DNA from: Nitrospirota bacterium
GTDB taxonomy: Bacteria > JACPQY01
Assembly (NCBI GenBank): GCA_016180645.1
Contig: JACPAV010000007.1
Coordinates: 40,888-104,887 of the forward strand
DNA: 64,000 nt
Reading direction: 5' to 3'
Positions 16,996 to 56,809 of the stretch are shown piece by piece. A model generated the notes under the pieces. It saw only the letters and a program-made list of their open reading frames with translations. It was not told the origin of the DNA and searched no databases. A program made the translations under genes and the position numbers. The stretch's first letter is position 1. Every line of letters starts with the position of its first letter.

Positions 16996-17673
16996 TCAGG
17001 CCTCCGCTCTCCGGGTCCCCCGACCGTTGAGCAGGTGCCGCTTGACCATGGCAACGGCCTCCGCGGGAGACTGCGCCAGATTCACCAGCCGGTAGTCGCC
17101 GTCCCGAATGAGGAGTTCTTCGCCGAAGACGGCAAAAACGCGGTTCCAGAAATCGCCGAGGAGGATGATGGGTTTCTTGACGATCCCTGCCTGGCGGAGC
17201 GACCAGATGAGTGTCAATTCCGTGAGCGTCCCTACGCCGCCACGAAGCACGACAAAGGCGTCCGCCATCGAAATGAATCGCTTGAGCCTCTTGTAGATCT
17301 CGGGATGGTGGAAGACCCTGTCCAGATAGCGGTTGGGCTTGTAGTCCTTGAACTCCTCTGTGGTGAGGCCGGCGGTGGGACCCCCGGCTTCCCTCGCGCC
17401 GCGCGAAACGGCTTCCATGCTGCCCTGGTAGCCTCCCGTGATGACTTGGAATCCGGCTTCAGCGAGCATCCGGCCCAGCGAGCGCGCATCGCGGTAGTTG
17501 GGATCGCCGTCGGACGTCAGAGAGCCGCAGAAAACAGCCACCGTCTTGATCTGACCTCCACGATGGGGGAAATGTCGCGGGAGGGCAGGAGCCCGGAGCG
17601 ACCGACCTCCACGATGGGGGAAATGTCGCGGGAGGGCAGGAGCCCGGAGCGACCGACCTCCATTTCGTTTCAT
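16996..17673 (-). CDS. LOG-family protein (cytokinin riboside 5'-monophosphate phosphoribohydrolase-like); N-terminus carries a tandem 17-aa duplication, true start uncertain
   Basis: …IKTVAVFCGS…; …PGGYGTLEE-like GGVGTLTELT…; …KPIILLG…. The N-terminal extension GGRSLRAPALPRHFPHR occurs twice. Confidence 0.75.
   Translation of the reverse strand: MKRNGGRSLRAPALPRHFPHRGGRSLRAPALPRHFPHRGGQIKTVAVFCGSLTSDGDPNYRDARSLGRMLAEAGFQVITGGYQGSMEAVSRGAREAGGPTAGLTTEEFKDYKPNRYLDRVFHHPEIYKRLKRFISMADAFVVLRGGVGTLTELTLIWSLRQAGIVKKPIILLGDFWNRVFAVFGEELLIRDGDYRLVNLAQSPAEAVAMVKRHLLNGRGTRRAEA
17555..17662. repeat. 51-bp perfect tandem duplication (2.1 copies), in frame at the 5' end of the LOG gene
   Basis: Unit cctccacgatgggggaaatgtcgcgggagggcaggagcccggagcgaccga repeats at 17555-17605 and 17606-17656, with a partial third start. 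Confidence 0.9.
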
Positions 17674-32429: not shown

Positions 32430-32513
32430 ACTCGGAAACGCTGGCTCCGCCCTTTACAGCTCTTGCGACACCGGCTACAATGCGCGCCCATGTTTAGCAA
32501 AGGAGAAACAAGA

Positions 32514-33254
32514 ATGAGCAAACATTTGGCGGCCCTTTTCGCGGCGGCGGCGGTCGTAGCCTGCACGTCCGCCGGGAACAAGGGTCTCGAAGAACGCGTC
32601 AAGAAGCTTGAAGACCAGGTCAAAGACCTCCGCGTGGACGTGAACAACGTCAAGACCGCGCGCCCCAGCGGCGGCGGTGAAGAGGAACCGGCCAAGGAGG
32701 TCACCGTCAAGATCGGGGAGTACTATCAGGGAGACGAGGATGCCAAAGTCGGCATCGTCGAATTCTCTGACTTCCAATGACCGTTCTGCGGTCGTTGGTA
32801 CAACGACACATTGAGCAAGCTCAGAGCGGACTACATCAACAAGGGCAAAGTGGTTTTCTCGTATCGTCAATATCCTCTTCCCTTCCATCCCCACGCTCAG
32901 AAAGCGGCGGAAGCCAGCGTCTGCGCGGGCGACCAGGGCAAGTTCTGGGAAATGCACGACGCGATCTTCCAGGACATCCAGAAGATTGAAGTGCCCGCCC
33001 TGAAGGAAAGGGCCAAGAAGATCGGACTGAAGCAATCCAAGTTCGATTCCTGCGTGGATTCCGGAAAACTCAAGGAGGCGGTGGAGAAGGATGCGAGCGA
33101 TGGCGCTGCCGTGGGCATCCGTGGTACGCCCGGGTTCGTCGTCGGCAAAGTGGATCACAAGAACAAGACCGTCACCGGGAAGATCATCTCCGGCGCGTAT
33201 CCCTATCAGACCTTCAAGGACCAGATCGAGGAGAGCCTCAAAGCGATTGACTGA
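32514..33254 (+). CDS. DsbA-like thiol:disulfide oxidoreductase lipoprotein with in-frame TGA at 32778-32780 replacing the first Cys of the CxxC motif (candidate selenoprotein, UPFC)
   Basis: RBS aaggag, then ATG at 32514. Lipobox …AAVVACTS…. The ORFs 32463..32780 and 32811..33254 are in the same frame and read …VGIVEFSDFQ-TGA-PFCGRWYND…YINKGKVVFSY…. This aligns with the DsbA/BdbD pattern EFxDxxCPxC with TGA exactly at the first Cys. A 7-bp stem hairpin starts 10 nt downstream. Confidence 0.6.
32791..32807 (+). promoter_or_regulatory. candidate bacterial SECIS-like hairpin (gtcgttg-gta-caacgac) 10 nt downstream of the in-frame UGA
   Basis: Perfect 7-bp stem read directly. Position relative to UGA is compatible with bacterial SECIS spacing. 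Confidence 0.35.
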
Positions 33255-39973: not shown

Positions 39974-41284
39974 TTGGAGGTGAAGATGCTGCGGCTTGGA
40001 GTCACTTCGCTGAGTGTCCTGCTTCTGTTCTCCTGCGATCAATCCAAACCGAAGCAGTCGTACCCCACTCCCATCGAGCACGTTATTTTCATCAGCAAGG
40101 AGAATCGGACGTTCGACACATATTTCGGGGCCTATTCGTCTCCCTCCGGTGATCACGTGGAAGGAACCACAAAAGGAAAGCTGGGATCCACCGTAATCGA
40201 CCTTCCGAGAGGGCAGGACGTCGGGCCCTACGTCATGCACGAGCACTCGAACGCCCTTCTTTCATGGAACGGCGGCGCGATGGATGGGTTCTACCTGACT
40301 CCCCGTTTGTACGGACCCCCCACCCAAGAGGAGAAATTGGAATCCTACGTGCAGTACCTGAGGGACGATATCCCGAACTATTGGGCGCTCGCCGACCGCT
40401 TCGCGCTGGCCGATCATTACTTTACGTCCGTCATGACCTCGACCTTCCCGAATCGGCTCCATTCCGTGGCCGCGCAGGCGGCCGGGATGTATCAACTGCC
40501 GATCTCCAAGCCGTGGAGTTGCCAAATCAAATACGCCGCCGCGCCGGTCTTTAAGGAAGACTGCTCCACAGACATGGTTGTCCCCTGTTTCGACATCCCG
40601 ACCATTTTCGACCTCGTGGAGGCGAAGGGGCTGACCTGGAAGATGTACATTTCGCCCAGGGATGGAGGCGGCAATTTCAATGCGCTCTACTCCATCCGCC
40701 GCTACTATGAAAAAGTTCAATCGGACCCCGCCTATGCCGACAAGTTCTTTCCACCTGTCAGCCAATTGGCGGAAGACGCGAGGCGGGACCGGCTGCCCAA
40801 CGTGGCCTTCGTGATCTACCCGATGGAACTCAGCGAGCACGCTCCGGAAGGACCGGTCTGTTGCGGCGAAGAGGCCACCACAAGAGACATCTGGGCCCTC
40901 ATGGAGAGCCCGGCGTGGAAACGGAGCCTCATCATCCTGACGTGGAACGACTACGGCGGCTACCACGACCACGTGCCGCCGCCCGAGCCGCACGCGTGCC
41001 CTTCGGGCGAGGGGCACTACGAGCCCGGCTTCAGAGTGCCCGCAATCTTTGTTTCCCCATACGTCAGGCGAGGGTCGGTCGTTTCAACGGTGCTTCAACA
41101 CGGATCGGTCCTGCGTGGAATCGAGGACATCTTCTCGCTCGGAATGACGCTCCACGACCTGGACCCGCGGGCCAACGATCACACGATGAATTCCATCGCC
41201 GAAGTTCTGAATTTCGCCTCCCCCGATTTCACCGTCCCCCCTCGCACCGCCCGCTCCTGCCCAAACGCCTGCCTCGCAGATTAG
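39974..41284 (+). CDS. phosphoesterase-family lipoprotein (phospholipase C / AcpA acid-phosphatase-like)
   Basis: Lipobox …VLLLFSCDQ…; …IEHVIFISKENRTFDTYFG… phosphoesterase family signature. Confidence 0.75.
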   Translation: MEVKMLRLGVTSLSVLLLFSCDQSKPKQSYPTPIEHVIFISKENRTFDTYFGAYSSPSGDHVEGTTKGKLGSTVIDLPRGQDVGPYVMHEHSNALLSWNGGAMDGFYLTPRLYGPPTQEEKLESYVQYLRDDIPNYWALADRFALADHYFTSVMTSTFPNRLHSVAAQAAGMYQLPISKPWSCQIKYAAAPVFKEDCSTDMVVPCFDIPTIFDLVEAKGLTWKMYISPRDGGGNFNALYSIRRYYEKVQSDPAYADKFFPPVSQLAEDARRDRLPNVAFVIYPMELSEHAPEGPVCCGEEATTRDIWALMESPAWKRSLIILTWNDYGGYHDHVPPPEPHACPSGEGHYEPGFRVPAIFVSPYVRRGSVVSTVLQHGSVLRGIEDIFSLGMTLHDLDPRANDHTMNSIAEVLNFASPDFTVPPRTARSCPNACLAD

Positions 41285-42911: not shown

Positions 42912-43870
42912 ATGAAGATTCGACGGATCAACGCTGACAAGCCGCACCTCTGGAAGGCCGACATCGCGGCCTCCGTTGACCAATTCAACCAGTGGTTCAT
43001 GCGCTTCGCGCCCGAGGCGTTCCGATCCACGCGGGTGGAGACGACCGAGCACGTCAAAGCGGCGCTTGTGGCAACCCAGAACCTGCGCGCCCTGAACGCT
43101 GCCACGTTGAAGGCCAACCCGGGCGCACTCCCGACTCTCCGCATGTGCACCGCCCCGCCGCTCGCCGTGGACCGCCTGATCGGCTTGGCCGACGCGAGCA
43201 AGAATCTCGTCGGCCGGATGGAGAAGGGTAAGCTGCCGACCAAGATTCAGGCTGCGGACCTTGACGCGGAGTTGACCAAGCTCTGCCGCATTCTGTCGCG
43301 GCTCTTGGACCGGGACATATTTCCCTGGCTCGACAACCGGACGGCCCCGACCGACCATGAGCGCGACCGGGCCTCAACGATCGTTGCCGATCGGCTGTGC
43401 AGCGCGGTGGCGAACCCGATCGTCCGCAACGCTCAGGAGCAACGACAACTCGCATTGATCGGCGACCATCTCGACGGCCGGGGCTATCGCAAGCAAGCCC
43501 ACCCGCCGGGCAAGCCGCTCACGCAGATGGAACCCGGCACGTATGCCTTCCGCATGAATCTGGCCGTCGGAAAGGCTCTCAAAGTCAACATCCCGGTCGA
43601 CGTCGTGATCTAGCCCAAGAGTCTCCGCAAAGACCGGCTGCCAATTCTGATCGAAGCCAAATCCGCGGGTGATTTCACGAACACCAACAAGCGCCGCAAG
43701 GAGGAGGCAACCAAGATCCACCAGTTGCAGGCAGCCTACGGCGCGACCGTGGTGTTCGTGCTCTTCCTCTGTGGATACTTTGGCAGCGACTATCTGGGCT
43801 ACGAAGCTGCCGAGGGGATCGACTGGGTGTGGGAGCACCGAATCGAGGACCTCGCGAAGCTGGGGCTGTA
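42912..43870 (+). pseudogene. type II restriction endonuclease (PD-(D/E)xK) interrupted by an in-frame TAG at 43611..43613
   Basis: The frame continues through the TAG for 85 more codons to a TAA at 43868, which abuts the MTase ATG. The amber falls between …NIPVDVVI (PD-like) and …[11 protein letters not shown]… (ExK). Confidence 0.55.
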
Positions 43871-43875
43871 ACACC

Positions 43876-45472
43876 AATGATCACGCCACGCGAGAACCCG
43901 ATTGAAGCTCGACGACAGGCCATTCAGGCGGCGCTCGACGCAAGGAAGTCGGCCGCCGAGAGGAACCGCCTCGGTCAATTCGCGACTCCCAACGCCCTCG
44001 CGATCGAGATTGCCCGCTACGTTCGGTCCATTGCGGGCCGCCGTCTCCACGCGGTCCATTTCGCCGACCCCTCCGTCGGCACGGGCAGCTTCTACAGCGC
44101 CGTGCTCGCCGTTTTCGGCTCCGAGCAAATCGAGAACGCCGTCGGCGTCGAACTCGACCCCGGCTTCTGCGATGCCGCCCGCGACCTGTGGGCGGAAGCG
44201 GGCCTTGATGTGATGCAGGGCGACTTTACCCGCATTGTCGCAAGTGCCGGTTGCCCGGTCGCACCTAACCTGATCCTCGCCAACCCGCCCTACGTCCGGC
44301 ATCATCACTTGGAGCGCAAGGACAAGGAACGCCTGCAAGCCCTCACGCACCGGATGGCGGGTGTCGAGGTCAATGGCCTCGCGGGTCTATACGTTTACTT
44401 CCTTCTTCTCGCCACGGCGTGGATGGAGGAAGGCGGCTATGCCGCGTGGCTTATCCCCTCCGAGTTCATGGACGTCAACTACGGCGCGGTGGTCAAGCGC
44501 TTCCTGACGGACCGCGTGGAGCTTCTCCGCGTTCATCGTTTTGACGCCGAAGATGTGCAGTTCGGCGACGCCTTGGTCTCATCCGTCGTCTTGGTGTTCC
44601 ACAAGGCGCCACCGCCACGCGATCATGCCGTGGAGTTTACCTTCGGTGGCACGATCGCTGAGCCGCATGCCCGCGAATCCGTCACGCTGGACCGGCTGCG
44701 CGACTCACGCAAGTGGACCGCGTACCCCGAGCACGATCGGAATGACCGTCGCTCGTCCACGAACGGCGAAGGGCCAACGCTTGGTGACTTGTTTCGAATC
44801 CAGCGCGGTATCGCCACCGGTAACAACAAGTTCTTCGTCCTTGACCGGTCCGACGCGGCCAAACGCGGCCTACCGAAGAAGTTTCTACGCCCGATCCTCC
44901 CCAGCCCGCGCCACCTCAAGGCGACGATCATCGATGCCGGCGAAGATGGCTACCCGCTGATTGACCCACAGTTCTGCGTTGTCGACTGCGAGCTGCCGGA
45001 GCATGTTGTTGCGGCCAAGTACCCGGCCCTTTGGGCATACCTGCAAACCGCCGAGGCGCTGGGGATCAAAGATGGCTATCTCGTCGGTAAGCGTTCGCCG
45101 TGGTACAGGCAGGAGCAACGGTTGCCTGCACCCTTCCTTTGCACCTACATGGGTCGGGGCGCCGAAGAAAAGCAACCATTTCGCTTCATCTGGAACCGCT
45201 CGGCTGCCATCGGGACAAACCTCTACCTCATGCTGTATCCACAGCGCACCCTCGCTGCGAAACTGCGGGCACAACCAGAGTGCGGCGCAGCGATCCACGA
45301 TCTCTTGCGATGTGTCACCGGGCACGAGCTGCGCGGAGAGGGACGTGTCTACGGCGGTGGGCTCAACAAGATAGAGCCGAGTGAGTTGGGCCGCATTTCG
45401 GCGGCACCGTTCATCGCGCGTTGGCCAGAGCTGAAGTCCGCTGTGCAGCGCCAGGTAGGGCTCTTCGGGTGA
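43876..45472 (+). CDS. N6-adenine DNA methyltransferase (gamma-class, NPPY; TaqI/Eco57I-like with C-terminal target-recognition domain)
   Basis: Motif I …[11 protein letters not shown]…; motif IV …[14 protein letters not shown]…. Confidence 0.85.
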
Positions 45473-45571
45473 CTCGCAGCAGAATCGGAGTGGGCACCCC
45501 CGGGGTGCCTAGCAACCGGTTGCGCGGATGGTCCGCTGCGCGGCCCGCCGGGTAGAGGAACCTCAGAGAGT

Positions 45572-45846
45572 CAATTGACACGGAATCAGCCTCCGGTAGA
45601 ATCCGACGCATGGCTCCCATGACGATTCATTTCGTCGTCCCCGGAGCGAAGCGAATGGGGCGCTTGTCAGGCATGGACACCGCAACGGGGGCAATACGGG
45701 AATCAAATCGAAAATATCGGTCGAGATCGCTGACATGATAATAGGCATCCGGCCTGCCCGCGCCCTTGGCAGGCGGGCAAAACTGCCCGAAAGCAGTCCC
45801 GATATCGCCTTGTCAGGGCAAAATGGCAAGTTAATCAATGGTTAGG
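45572..45846. repeat. direct repeat B (~275 bp) with consensus sigma70 promoter at 45575..45602
   Basis: Matches 41921..42254 apart from the insertion in copy A. Confidence 0.85.
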
Positions 45847-45862
45847 GGGCGAGACATACTCT

Positions 45863-46234
45863 ATGGATTACGTTGCCTTCCATAACAAGCAAGGCCGGCC
45901 TGTCGCATGGATTGGCGATAACCAGGACTACCCGTCAATCTTTCTGTTCAACGGTAAGCCTGTTGCGTGGATAGCCGATGACTGCGTCTATAGCTATTCC
46001 GGAAAGTACTTGGGTTGGCTCCAGGACGGATGGATACGGGACAGAAACGGTCACGCCGTGTTCTACACCGGCGAGGCTTCTGACGGTCCTGCCAAACCTG
46101 CTAGACAGGCTCGACCTGCTCGCGGGGCTCGTGGTGCGCGACCCGCGCGTGGCGCGCCCGAGGCTCGACCAGCAAGACCTGCGCGCTCAACATCTTGGTC
46201 ACCACTCAGCGATGAGTCGTTCTTTGAGCAATAG
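45863..46234 (+). CDS. hypothetical protein with three internal G(K/R)PVAWI…Y…GK(Y)LGW repeats and a PAR-rich tail
   Basis: Repeats visible in MDYVAFHNKQGRPVAWIGDNQDYPSIFLFNGKPVAWIADDCVYSYSGKYLGWLQDGWIRD…. Driven by the repeat-B promoter. Confidence 0.4.
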   Translation: MDYVAFHNKQGRPVAWIGDNQDYPSIFLFNGKPVAWIADDCVYSYSGKYLGWLQDGWIRDRNGHAVFYTGEASDGPAKPARQARPARGARGARPARGAPEARPARPARSTSWSPLSDESFFEQ

Positions 46235-46322
46235 CGGCGCGCCCCCTAACAATTCATTCAAGCCGACGCCGCTTCGTGCCGCGGCTGATGCCGGACCTTT
46301 CCCCTGAAAGACGCAAAGCGCC

Positions 46323-46946
46323 ATGTCGTTCTATAAGGCCAGCGACACGAGCAATTTCGTAATCTCCTTTACACGTGACCCGAAAGGAGATTTCAGCGCG
46401 TTCGCGAAGGGCTACACACGCGCGGCAAATCGTTTGGCGGCGGCACTGCTCGGGGGTCCGAGGTTCCCTGACTATGAAGCGTACCCCGTTGTTTTCTTGT
46501 ATAGGCACGCGCTCGAACTGTCGCTAAAGCACATTATCTACGGTGGAGCCGAACTCGCAGCGTACCGGTGCATGGATGAAATAAACGAACAGTTGCAGAT
46601 CAACCATAACCTTGCTGAGCTTTCGCGGGTAGCCGGCAAGGTGCTTTCGCTCCTCTTTCCGAATGACGAGATGCTCAACCGTGTCAATGCAACTGTGGCA
46701 GCGATTTGCGCCGACTGGTCCAAGATAGACCCCGGCTCCTTTGCGTACCGATATCCCATAGTCACGAAGGGCCTACCCACTACAGAACGAAATCAAACTG
46801 TGAGCCTGCGCGCGCTCTCAACCCATATGGCAGCTGTCCTGGAAGATCTCGACACTGTTCAGTTTGGTCTTGATATGGAAACTTACAAGGCGCAGGAACT
46901 GTACGGAATTCTTGAGCAGTTCGTTCCATCCGGCCGTGCACATTGA
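46323..46946 (+). CDS. hypothetical protein (first gene of a three-gene candidate defence module)
   Basis: 207-aa ORF in lower-GC DNA, same strand and tight spacing with the next two ORFs. Confidence 0.4.
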   Translation: MSFYKASDTSNFVISFTRDPKGDFSAFAKGYTRAANRLAAALLGGPRFPDYEAYPVVFLYRHALELSLKHIIYGGAELAAYRCMDEINEQLQINHNLAELSRVAGKVLSLLFPNDEMLNRVNATVAAICADWSKIDPGSFAYRYPIVTKGLPTTERNQTVSLRALSTHMAAVLEDLDTVQFGLDMETYKAQELYGILEQFVPSGRAH

Positions 46947-47062
46947 CAGCTTGTAGGCCAACAACGCACTTCAGCCGACGTCGCGCTCGCTGCGCTCGCG
47001 CACCGCGGCTGAGCGCGGGCATTGGGCGGACATGAACAACACCAACTGGGATTGAGGCGGCT

Positions 47063-47623
47063 GTGATCCAACTCTACCAAGCCGGCGGCGCGGGCGACTT
47101 CGCCATCCTCCAAGATGCCTGGACTCATGAACAGTGTCGACTTCTCTTCGAGAACGCGGGGCGTCTTCTTAATGAACGCGTGCACTCGCGAGCCGCCGAG
47201 CTCCTACGAGCCGTACCGTTTCGAGTCGCTGATGCAACGAACCATTTCAATGATGAGTTCTCGCTACTGCACGCTGTCGTACCGCTTGCGGAATATGAGC
47301 AGCTTCGCCGTGGGCAGGACGACCCGGTTAATCGGCAGGCGGTACGACAGATCGCCGCCGTATTGTCCGAACTCGGAACGCCGATCCGGTTCATAGCAAT
47401 CGAACTAGCCTTGGAAGCGCCAGTGCATCCGGCCACGCGGGCCGGTGGCGGTCTGAAGCAATCGGAGGTCAACAAGCTCGTATCGAGGTACATCGGCGTC
47501 TCGGGGGGCTACCTGGGTGATTTCTCGTATCGAAGCCACCATGAGTTCTACATCGAGCTGGATCTCGATATTGACCCCTACAACTACGATGGGACCACCC
47601 GCGAACGATTCACCAGGTTCTGA
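47063..47623 (+). CDS. hypothetical protein (second gene of the module)
   Basis: 186-aa ORF; ends 15 nt before the next ORF. Confidence 0.4.
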   Translation: MIQLYQAGGAGDFAILQDAWTHEQCRLLFENAGRLLNERVHSRAAELLRAVPFRVADATNHFNDEFSLLHAVVPLAEYEQLRRGQDDPVNRQAVRQIAAVLSELGTPIRFIAIELALEAPVHPATRAGGGLKQSEVNKLVSRYIGVSGGYLGDFSYRSHHEFYIELDLDIDPYNYDGTTRERFTRF

Positions 47624-47637
47624 GCGAGAGCTCGCCC

Positions 47638-48207
47638 GTGGTACAGGCCAAGATCCTCGAAGGCGTCTTGGCTCGCTTCCCAGTTAGCAGCTCCGAATTT
47701 CGTACATCGGACAGGGCTGCGGAGATTCGACGCTGGATCGCGCGTCTCCGCTCTGGCCCCGAGGTCGAACAGCCGACCCTGCGGATCACCAGCGAGGTGG
47801 TGGAACGCGCTTTGTTGGATGCCCAACAGCTCGTTCGCGCCACCGGAGCTACTAGTGGGGTGGATAGGCTCCACACCGCGCTTCACGGCTATCTCCGCGT
47901 AGTCTGCGGTGACGCGAATATCAAGGTCGACGGTGATGCGTCGCTGACCGACCTCTTCAAGCAGCTACGGGAGAGACATCCAGCCTTTCGCGATCTTGGC
48001 CCCCGGAGCGGCGACATCCTTCGAGTTCTCAGGGCGCTGGGGAGCATTCTTGACACACTGAATCCCTTACGAAACAAGGCCAGCCTCGCGCACCCAAATC
48101 CAGTGCTCCTTCCCGGGCCCGAGGCGATGCTGGCCATCAACGCGGCCCTCTCAATCCTGCACTACGTTGATGAAAAGGTGCACCGTAATGCAACTGGAAG
48201 CAGCTAG
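47638..48207 (+). CDS. Abi_C/HEPN-like protein (RNKxxxxH motif), candidate abortive-infection effector
   Basis: …LDTLNPLRNKASLAHPNPV… fits the Rx4-6H HEPN motif with the R-N dipeptide typical of the Abi C-terminal family. Confidence 0.45.
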   Translation: MVQAKILEGVLARFPVSSSEFRTSDRAAEIRRWIARLRSGPEVEQPTLRITSEVVERALLDAQQLVRATGATSGVDRLHTALHGYLRVVCGDANIKVDGDASLTDLFKQLRERHPAFRDLGPRSGDILRVLRALGSILDTLNPLRNKASLAHPNPVLLPGPEAMLAINAALSILHYVDEKVHRNATGSS

Positions 48208-54642: not shown

Positions 54643-54801
54643 CCGCCATTCCCGCCGGGAAATGAGTGAATGAGCGTGTCCACGGGCGCTCAGCCGTACC
54701 GGATTAGAGCAAATGGCCGGCATCTCGGCCAGGCCATGGTGTCGGAAAACGTTTTCAACAACCGGCGCCTTGTGCCCCGCGCCAAGGAGCGGCGTGAAAA
54801 G

Positions 54802-55698
54802 ATGATCGCCTTCGGCTACTACGGCGGCAAGTTTTCACACTTGGATTTCCTTCTCCCCCTCTTGCCCACCCATCTTACGCACTTCTGCGAACCCTTCGGA
54901 GGTTCAGCCGCCATCATCATCAATCGCCCTCCAGCACCGGTGGAAACGTACAACGACTTGGACTCAGAAGTGGTGAATTTTTTTCGCTGTCTTCGCGATC
55001 ACGGCGCAGAACTTGTGAAGCTGATCGGCTTGACGCCGTTTTCTCGTGAGGAGCTTGTGAAGGCATGCACCCCGCAGCCTGGACTCGCTCCTCTGGAACG
55101 AGCACGGCGATTCTTCGTTCGCGCCCGACAGACCCGAACCGGCTTGGCCCAAACAAGCTCGGAAGGCAGATGGGCACATTGTGTACTGACCTCGCGGGCG
55201 GCGATGGCCGGCGCCGTCTCCCGCTGGCTGGGAAGCGTTGAGGGCCTCCCGGAAATAGTCCAGCGTTTCCAGCGGGTCCAAATCGAAAACGCGCCGGCGG
55301 TTGAAGTCATTCGACGCTTCGATTCTCCTGACACCCTGTTCTACTGCGATCCGCCATATCCGCACGAAGCAAGGGGCGATAGCAAGGCATACGGATTCGA
55401 AATGACGGACCGGGAGCACGCTGACCTTGCCGAGGCGTTGCGTTCATGCCGCGGGGCAGTGGCCGTGTCGGGATACGATTGTCCTTTGATGGAACGCCTC
55501 TATCGAGGATGGCGCCGAGTGGACGCGGATCTTCGTCTCTGCAATTCCTCAAAGGGTCAACGCAGGGAATCTGTGTGGATGAACTATGATCCGGCTCATT
55601 TCGCGGCACGGAGTGATGGAGGGCGTGTCGAGGAGACTTTGACCCTGCTTGAGCGATCCCGACCCTATGGAAGAAAGAGGCGTGGCAAAAAGAGCTAA
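54802..55698 (+). CDS. Dam-family (D12-class) N6-adenine DNA methyltransferase; start set at an internal Met
   Basis: …FGYYGGKFSHL… (motif I region) and …FYCDPPY… (motif IV). Confidence 0.8.
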   Translation: MIAFGYYGGKFSHLDFLLPLLPTHLTHFCEPFGGSAAIIINRPPAPVETYNDLDSEVVNFFRCLRDHGAELVKLIGLTPFSREELVKACTPQPGLAPLERARRFFVRARQTRTGLAQTSSEGRWAHCVLTSRAAMAGAVSRWLGSVEGLPEIVQRFQRVQIENAPAVEVIRRFDSPDTLFYCDPPYPHEARGDSKAYGFEMTDREHADLAEALRSCRGAVAVSGYDCPLMERLYRGWRRVDADLRLCNSSKGQRRESVWMNYDPAHFAARSDGGRVEETLTLLERSRPYGRKRRGKKS

Positions 55699-56809
55699 AC
55701 CGCCATTCACGCTCGATCACTCCAAGGCGCAATTGATCCTTGAAGACCATTGGAAGACAATCGGGCAGGAGGCAGCGGCGAACCCAAATCTCGCTTATCT
55801 GAGCGACCCCGCGCTCTTGGAGGCAATTCGATCTTCTCTGAATCACAAGCAGGTTGCGTACAGATTCTGCCTTCCCATCCAATTGCTCGGTAAGCTCGCG
55901 GATCCGGCTATCGACTGTCTTCGACTTCAGAGGAAGAAAGGGAGCAAACGCGATGTAGGAGGATGGGATGCGCGCAGTCTCGGAAGCAAGGTCGTCGCGC
56001 CCTTCAATCAACGACAAGAAGGCGTGTTGGGATCCTCCGCCGACCCCTATGTCGGCAACCCCATGCGAATTCCACGAATGCGCAGAGACGACCCGAGCAA
56101 GAAAGACATAGCCGGTTGGAACGTACTCGTTGGTGTCCTTGAAGAGGTAGAATCGAAAAATGATCCGGAGCTTACGGTCAAGGTCTTTCGGCAGGTTCTG
56201 CTGGAAGTGTTCAGATGCCAGCAGGCTTTGCGATTCGCTTTTCCCCTGCCTCCCCGAATCAGTCTCGAGGATACTCTGGTACTTGCGGATCAATTCCTTC
56301 GCGAGAAATCCGGTGGAGACCGGGCGTTGGCTCTTTGCGGCGCCCTTTTCGATACAATCGGACTTCATTTCGGCCTGTTCAAGTCCGTGAATCGTGCCCG
56401 CATCAACGCGAGCGATGAGGCCATCGGACAGGCTGCCGACTTGGAATGTATGGACGAGAACGGGAATGTTGCCTTGGCGGTCGAAGTCAAGGACAGGTTT
56501 CTTTCTTTGACGGATGTGGAAGGTACAATCCGAAAGTCTCGCCGCCGCGAGATAAGAGAGGTGTTTTTCGCCACCCCGTCCGTTTTACTTGCGGACCAGG
56601 ACGCCGTGAAAGAACGGGTCCAAAAAACATTCGCGGCCGGTCAGAACCTCTACGTTTTCGACTTTTTCCAGCTCGCAAGGAGTGTGCTGGCTTTGGGCGG
56701 AGAAGCTGCCAGGATAACATTCATCAAGTGCGTCGGTGAGCACTTGAATCGCTGGAATACCCAGCCGGCGCACCGGCAGTCTTGGAAGAAGCTCTTGGAT
56801 TCGGTGTAG
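55667..56809 (+). CDS. putative cognate restriction endonuclease (PD-(D/E)xK-like: D…EVK); tentative
   Basis: Overlaps the MTase 3' end; …ECMDENGNVALAVEVKDRF… fits the D-x(n)-E-x-K pattern. Confidence 0.4.
   Translation: MEERGVAKRAKPPFTLDHSKAQLILEDHWKTIGQEAAANPNLAYLSDPALLEAIRSSLNHKQVAYRFCLPIQLLGKLADPAIDCLRLQRKKGSKRDVGGWDARSLGSKVVAPFNQRQEGVLGSSADPYVGNPMRIPRMRRDDPSKKDIAGWNVLVGVLEEVESKNDPELTVKVFRQVLLEVFRCQQALRFAFPLPPRISLEDTLVLADQFLREKSGGDRALALCGALFDTIGLHFGLFKSVNRARINASDEAIGQAADLECMDENGNVALAVEVKDRFLSLTDVEGTIRKSRRREIREVFFATPSVLLADQDAVKERVQKTFAAGQNLYVFDFFQLARSVLALGGEAARITFIKCVGEHLNRWNTQPAHRQSWKKLLDSV

Follow-up and report, generated by a model that had tools for sequence, protein, structure and literature searches.

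The DNA considered here is a stretch of 64,000 nucleotides (nt), hereafter the window, which spans positions 40,888 to 104,887 of contig JACPAV010000007.1 (204,950 nt; assembly GCA_016180645.1), and whose source record is a metagenome-assembled genome (MAG) labelled as a Nitrospirae/Nitrospirota bacterium. Window positions 32514-33254 constitute a single gene, annotated by GenBank as two, with an in-frame TGA at 32778-32780. As judged from sequence comparisons, this gene very probably encodes a thiol-disulfide oxidoreductase of the DsbA/BdbD-like type, putatively membrane-anchored and extracytoplasmic, with a predicted selenocysteine (Sec) as the N-terminal nucleophile of a U89-P-F-C92 active site. 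A selenoprotein had been proposed in the initial annotation of this DNA. That interpretation is now supported by the column of cysteines with which the TGA aligns, by a Cys-encoding orthologue that lacks the downstream hairpin, by the conservation of the TGA in diverged relatives, by purifying selection on the gene, and by the fit of the hairpin to the published model of the bacterial selenocysteine insertion sequence (SECIS; bSECIS for the bacterial form).

Gene structure and domain architecture

The two open reading frames (ORFs) at this locus, 32463-32780 and 32811-33254, lie in a common frame, and direct reading of the sequence recovers the TGA at 32778-32780 as their sole interruption. 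Translation across this codon gives ...VEFSDFQ-*-PFCGRWYNDT..., which confirms the original description of two same-frame ORFs parted by the TGA alone. The likely start codon is the ATG at 32514. GenBank gives two genes for this region, MBI2059322.1 (88 amino acids (aa), hypothetical, HYT87_06065) and MBI2059323.1 (147 aa, thioredoxin domain-containing). The parts of the gene are as follows.

32500..32505, plus strand: Shine-Dalgarno-like AAGGAG, 8 nt before the ATG (sequence read directly)
32514..33254, plus strand: complete gene for a 246-aa DsbA/Thioredoxin_4-type (seleno)lipoprotein, via UGA read-through (from Pfam, alignment and dN/dS, the ratio of nonsynonymous to synonymous substitution rates)
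32514..32564, plus strand: putative signal peptide with lipobox V-V-A-C, the codon of Cys17 being 32562-32564 (by inspection: MSKHLAALFAAAAVVAC followed by TSAG)
32778..32780, plus strand: in-frame UGA, predicted Sec codon, residue 89 (Cys column in homologues, TGA kept in relatives)
33126..33131, plus strand: Thr205-Pro206 of the G-T-P loop (invariant alignment columns)

The encoded protein is typified by an N-terminal lipoprotein-type signal (MSKHLAALFAAAAVVAC, by inspection), in which the lipobox VVAC is formed by residues 14-17, followed by a short linker resembling a coiled coil and, after it, a thioredoxin-fold domain. The U-P-F-C redox motif is encoded by 32778-32789, with the UGA at its first position. 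A Pfam search with the joined 246-aa protein, run with Cys in place of the stop, recovered significant matches to Thioredoxin_4 (PF13462; E 2e-29, 103.4 bits against a cut-off of 23.2) and to DSBA (PF01323; E 1e-17, 65 bits against a cut-off of 25.6), bearing out the earlier view that the joined ORFs form a complete DsbA/BdbD-type thioredoxin-fold protein. The nearest solved structures are those of DsbA (4PWP/4PWO, E 4e-20), 7UNN and BdbD (3EU3). The best NCBIfam match is to NF041057, a thioredoxin-like (seleno)lipoprotein family (E 6e-31), with a score of 107.9 bits that lies below the curated membership cut-off of 190; the lipoprotein assignment made in the initial annotation agrees with both this match and the lipobox seen by inspection.

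In the alignment of homologues the UGA column is occupied by Cys in all 14 of the aligned sequences, in the context E-F-S-D-F-[QE]-C-P-[FY]-C, as expected from the original placement of the TGA on the first Cys of a CxxC motif. U89-P-F-C92 aligns with C-P-[FY]-C, the motif at this site being C-P-[FY]-C/S across the 14 homologues, and T205 and P206 of the G-T-P loop are invariant. This loop we take to be the cis-proline loop of thioredoxin-fold oxidoreductases. The alignment of a TGA with Cys in at least two homologues, as found here, is one of the criteria by which selenoprotein genes have been recognized (PMC1088965).

If the GenBank annotation is taken at face value, the TGA would be a true stop that separates an 88-aa lipoprotein from an independent 147-aa protein initiated at TTG 32811. 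The annotation pipeline did call both ORFs, and the TTG lies 31 nt past the stop, but no Shine-Dalgarno-like sequence precedes it, and the ten codons that separate it from the TGA (PFCGRWYNDT) hold the rest of the active site and are conserved both in relatives and in the Cys orthologue. Moreover, the 147-aa fragment would have no signal peptide, its thioredoxin fold would miss both the redox motif and the first beta-strand, and the two parts belong to one polypeptide in all the full-length Cys homologues shown. Two separate proteins are on these grounds very unlikely, and a single read-through gene offers the better description of the locus.

Reproducibility of the TGA and selection around it

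A different explanation for the interrupted frame would be that a TGC/TGT to TGA change inactivated a Cys-type DsbA gene, leaving a pseudogene, or that an A was miscalled in sequencing or assembly. A single base change suffices to convert TGC to TGA, and the GenBank annotation shows two fragments. Against this, the gene was recovered with zero mismatches, TGA included, in three independent Logan assemblies of different runs (SRR12113431, SRR12113385 and SRR12113425; L125-L127), which speaks against the miscall of a TGC or TGT at 32778 that the initial annotation had raised as a concern. Furthermore, at least five diverged relatives (L001 and L140-L143; ~85% nt identity) from other runs and projects have kept the TGA. 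Comparison with these TGA-keeping relatives yields dN/dS of 0.06 over the 88 upstream codons and 0.10-0.11 downstream of the TGA; for the window and L001, dN is 0.03 and dS 0.54. Such low values on both sides indicate that both halves are translated in frame and are under selection while the TGA is present, which excludes a sequencing error and is a strong argument against a pseudogene. The stop also coincides precisely with the column of the redox Cys, and the SECIS-like hairpin that comes after it is conserved in relatives and absent from the Cys orthologue. Inactivation or error, already largely refuted, is thus extremely improbable as an account of this gene. The existence of distinct TGA-bearing sequences (L001 and L140-L143 and, in the wider family described below, at least 120 species) corresponds to a further criterion for selenoprotein genes (PMC1088965). 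The block from -9 to +36 around the UGA is invariant between the window and L001.

The hairpin downstream of the UGA

Three RNA structures can be delineated around the UGA.

32791..32807, plus strand: predicted SECIS core, 7-bp stem GUCGUUG/CAACGAC with the apical loop GUA (fold, conservation, rare codons)
32781..32829, plus strand: possible lower stem CCGUUCUG (32781-32788) / CAGAGCGG (32822-32829) around the core hairpin (55-nt fold)
32774..32798, plus strand: alternative 11-bp hairpin CCAAUGACCGU/GCGGUCGUUGG that buries the UGA and is mutually exclusive with the SECIS core (minimum-free-energy fold of 32770-32840)

The perfect 7-bp stem that the initial annotation had placed from 10 nt after the UGA is present in the sequence, with its arms at 32791-32797 (gtcgttg) and 32801-32807 (caacgac) and the loop gta at 32798-32800. 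The minimal SECIS of Escherichia coli is a 17-nt stem-loop about 11 nt past the UGA. The published bSECIS model specifies an apical loop of 3-9 nt, an upper stem of 4-16 bp, a minimum free energy of at most -7.5 kcal/mol, a G in the first two loop positions that is usually followed by G or U, and 16-37 nt between the UGA and the loop (PMC13188914). With a loop of 3 nt that opens with GU, a stem of 7 bp, a spacing of 17 nt and a core stability of -8.2 kcal/mol (z -2.76), the window hairpin lies within every constraint of this model, in line with the compatibility with a bacterial SECIS that had been claimed for it.

The coding sequence that forms the stem bears additional marks. It requires the codons GGT and CGT, which account for 9.9% of the Gly and 7.3% of the Arg codons of the window genes, respectively (jointly 0.7%), and synonymous recoding equals the local stability of the hairpin in 2.7% of 5000 trials (p = 0.027). 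All 14 stem nt, five third-codon positions among them, are unchanged in five of five diverged Sec-type relatives; the sole change in the hairpin among these is in the loop, from GUA to GUU, with the GU kept. The wider 55-nt fold has a stability of -18.2 kcal/mol in the window and -19.2 in L001.

The Cys orthologue and the proposed origin of the Sec form

Only Cys forms are found among the nearest relatives of the window protein (identities of 61%, 54% and below), and no other Sec-type protein recovered exceeds 45% identity to it. Of its full-length homologues the closest (P0002, locus L002; 61% identity) has TGC at the UGA site, displays a lipobox-like AAFAAC similar to that of the window protein, and is embedded in the same gene order as in the window, namely SPFH/Band_7 - DsbA - GH31 glycosidase. 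It differs at three stem positions (GGC, CGG and GAC) and forms no hairpin; its 55-nt region has a stability of -11.6 kcal/mol (z +1.15). Only three nt changes, GGC to GGU, CGG to CGU and GAC to AAC, would be needed to turn it into the complete hairpin. Given that the closest relatives are Cys forms and that just three nt separate the orthologue from the hairpin, parsimony suggests that the Sec form arose from a Cys ancestor within the small clade of the window gene, and this clade appears to have acquired Sec independently. The SECIS may have been assembled from the coding sequence for G-R-W-Y-D-D by three point changes (two synonymous and one D to N), along with TGC to TGA. If this were true, it would represent a minimal natural example of the birth of a selenoprotein. 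Since the Sec and Cys orthologues differ by very few nt in the SECIS region, the pair also offers a convenient system in which to test the contribution of Sec to a DsbA-type active site and the smallest amount of RNA that recoding requires.

The 54%-identical Cys homologue (P0105; L138 / L139, 501-1681) is directly followed by a VKOR gene. VKOR is the usual partner in the re-oxidation of DsbA, and this adjacency would fit descent from an oxidase. Neither VKOR nor DsbB was found near 32514-33254 or elsewhere among the annotated window genes.

A wider family of UxxC proteins

When each species was represented by a single genome (596 Gb in all), a scan with a degenerate pattern of 30 nt encoding E-F-S-D-[FY]-[QE]-TGA-P-[FY]-C matched at least 120 species genomes (L005-L124), where chance matches were estimated at ~0.07 (44 bits, 596 Gb, both strands, uniform base frequencies). 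The listed matches span Chloroflexota, Acidobacteriota, Rokubacteria, Myxococcota, Nitrospirota, Planctomycetota, Binatia and others, and in nearly all the listed loci the open frame extends over about 100-300 codons upstream of the TGA and over about 145-160 downstream. Among these listed loci each subfamily possesses its own strong hairpin 13-35 nt past the UGA with a small GU-containing loop, such as AGGGUCG-GUC-CGACCCU, GUCCAGC-GGUC-GCUGGAC and ACGUC-CGUGA-GACGU. When a hairpin was defined by a perfect stem, a GU loop and a stability of at most -6 kcal/mol, 61% of 119 true UGA sites were followed by one, versus 3.9% of 32,148 in-frame positions elsewhere in these genes, amounting to a ~16-fold enrichment after the UGA. 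No such hairpin was seen in seven Cys-type homologues; these controls were gathered from other look-ups, and a scan of viral contigs for Cys-type controls gave two loci only. A metagenome scan with the Sec pattern of the window subfamily, D-F-[QE]-U-P-F-C-G-R-W, gave no matches. The corresponding Sec-or-Cys pattern had a sole metagenome match (L128), which was rejected as an unrelated zinc-ribbon-like ORF.

Five other Sec-type relatives, taken from the genome scan, and the Cys orthologue score 96-178 bits against NF041057, below its cut-off, and this is probably the reason why annotation pipelines split such genes. The UxxC group of Thioredoxin_4 selenoproteins, which occurs in at least 120 species and of which the five tested members score under the cut-off, is probably under-annotated on a large scale, and Sec-dependent extracytoplasmic disulfide chemistry may be much commoner in soil and groundwater phyla than annotation shows. 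Taken jointly, we give about even chances to a reading in which an independent and fairly recent Cys to Sec conversion occurred in a Cys-type DsbA lineage and Sec-based disulfide chemistry is commoner than annotated.

Several individual loci of the wider family have their own peculiarities. L105 encodes a Sec-type (1502) and a Cys-type (2692) DsbA paralogue ~1.2 kb apart, and L045 two Sec-type paralogues in tandem (1336 and 2014). L022, L037 and L051 come from MAGs labelled Klebsiella or Enterobacteriaceae, and the Sec-DsbA sequences that they carry are similar to ones from Binatia or Chloroflexota MAGs; the three contigs are probably binning contaminants. The frame around the UGA is unusually long in L055 (6621), with 1491 codons upstream, and in L018 (827) and L120 (6255), with 360-407 codons downstream, which suggests fusions to other domains.

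Proposed recoding of the UGA and considerations to the contrary

TGA is an ordinary stop for many window genes, and the codon at 32778-32780 is the only plausible candidate for an in-frame TGA in the window. On both counts a reassigned genetic code was rejected. With the standard code thus in use, the UGA at 32778-32780 needs a dedicated recoding mechanism. In the proposed mechanism a complex of SelB, GTP and Sec-tRNA(Sec) would bind the 17-nt hairpin with the apical loop GUA during translation, and SelB would deliver Sec to the A site at the UGA, after which translation would run for 157 more codons. The resulting prolipoprotein would be exported and lipidated at Cys17, and U89-x-x-C92 would cycle between a selenenylsulfide and a selenolate/thiol state, exchanging disulfides with secreted proteins. 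We infer the actual insertion of Sec and the presence of selABCD, as well as the export and lipidation of the protein and whichever role it would have as an oxidase, isomerase or reductase. Compared with Cys, Sec has a lower pKa and a higher nucleophilicity, and reduction is more difficult for a selenenylsulfide than for a disulfide. In view of this general selenium chemistry, the window enzyme may exchange disulfides faster, and it could possibly serve as an isomerase or reductase more than as a strong oxidant.

A number of observations weigh against Sec insertion at this site. Within the 64-kb window none of tRNA-Sec, selA, selB and selD was found; more generally, the window contains no tRNA genes, none of its about 55 annotated genes is selA, selB or selD, and the short Logan contigs retrieved for the window flanks contain no sel genes. 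With respect to the RNA, the hairpin is small and its significance taken alone is modest (p about 0.03-0.05). Rfam returned nothing relevant, either with gathering thresholds over the whole window or with permissive thresholds over 32740-32860, and there was no match to a SECIS family. In a whole-region synonymous shuffle the window reaches only z = -1.9 (p = 0.055); across 108 genes the mean z of this shuffle is -1.08, with p <= 0.05 in 27%. The shuffle being moderately informative, the position-specific test for GU-loop hairpins described above was used in its place. The hairpin at 32774-32798 that buries the UGA is about as stable in free RNA as the SECIS core, and would have to be melted by a ribosome that sits on the UGA; it may have a regulatory or kinetic role. 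The 8-bp lower stem is present in L001, with U.G replaced by U-A, and has two mismatches in L140; as the latter breaks it, this stem is probably not essential, and as a non-conserved feature it was rejected as an essential part of the element. Finally, L001 is a contig of 725 nt in which the 38 codons before E-F-S-D-F-Q look like a different subfamily, positions 1-95 resembling Acidobacteriota-type Sec-DsbA proteins (DPNKVY...); it may be a mosaic gene or an assembly that is chimeric at the conserved motif, a problem of which L140-L143 are free. As to the lineage, Nitrospirae are among those with selB/selC in a 2026 review (PMC13188914), which is compatible with Sec decoding here and is not proof of it for the window genome.

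Read-through of the UGA could alternatively proceed without Sec, for example by hairpin-stimulated near-cognate insertion of Trp or Cys, the product being a full-length protein that is not a selenoprotein. Downstream hairpins can in principle promote stop-codon read-through. However, the placement of a UGA at the redox Cys is the signature of Sec/Cys pairs, the position, size and GU loop of the hairpin fit the SelB-dependent bSECIS model, and this design recurs in at least 120 species. Furthermore, a Trp at residue 89 would abolish catalysis in a CxxC-type oxidoreductase, and a gene reliant on misincorporated Cys would be expected to revert to TGC. We consider such Sec-independent read-through unlikely, with only a slim chance of being correct. 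Under the favored interpretation of a Sec-containing DsbA-like lipoprotein, the split annotation MBI2059322.1 plus MBI2059323.1 would be corrected to one 246-aa selenoprotein, and the gene would imply the decoding of UGA as Sec by a groundwater organism labelled as Nitrospirota.

Other features of the window

Elsewhere the window displays a tandem repeat and two gene groups of the defence type.

17553-17662: perfect 51-bp tandem repeat (2.2 copies, 100% matches) inside a LOG/Lysine_decarbox-family gene, 16996-17673, minus strand
42912-48207: defence-type cluster of a XamI-type restriction endonuclease (42912-43613), an Eco57I-like methylase (43829-45472) and an Abi_C protein (47638-48207)
54670-56809: second defence-type pair, adjoining recA, of a D12 methyltransferase (54670-55698) and a SacI-like endonuclease (55649-56809)

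Comparison with known systems

UxxC DsbA-like proteins were represented by nine sequences in the Sargasso Sea selenoproteome and were later reported from Anaeromyxobacter, Desulfovibrio and Desulfotomaculum (PMC1088965, PMC1794560). The 2026 review lists both a 'DsbA-like protein form 1' (PF01323, UxxC), with NIP15863.1 as the published representative, and a 'DsbG-like protein' (NF041057, UxxC) (PMC13188914). UxxC DsbA-like and DsbG-like selenoproteins have thus been known since 2005, and the window gene adds a member to them, not a new kind.

The DsbG-like selenoprotein corresponds to NF041057, the 'Rcas_1661 family thioredoxin-like (seleno)lipoprotein' (Zhang and Gladyshev lists; PMC13188914), which has a UxxC motif in a thioredoxin-like lipoprotein, as is predicted for the window protein, and, as is the case for the window gene, includes Sec/Cys pairs within the family. 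The window protein is related to this family without being an equivalog member (below 190 bits). With DsbA-like form 1 it shares the DSBA domain, Sec at the first position of UxxC, Cys homologues that are widespread, and a hairpin that has a small loop and G directly after the UGA. However, the original form 1 family was assigned to COG2761, whereas the window protein is a predicted lipoprotein best described by Thioredoxin_4 (PF13462). The Cys-type DsbA/MdbA/BdbD oxidases (4PWP/4PWO, 7UNN and 3EU3) have in common with it the fold family, the E-F-S-D-F-x-C-P-F-C context and the G-T-P loop, and differ in having Cys where the window gene has UGA. At the RNA level, the window element resembles the bacterial SECIS (the E. 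coli fdhF type and the Zhang and Gladyshev consensus; PMC13188914) in being a hairpin within the coding sequence just past the UGA. In contrast to these, it appears from its sequence to have neither similarity to any described SECIS nor a bulged U, and it is also unrelated in sequence to the SECIS of the other Sec-type subfamilies.

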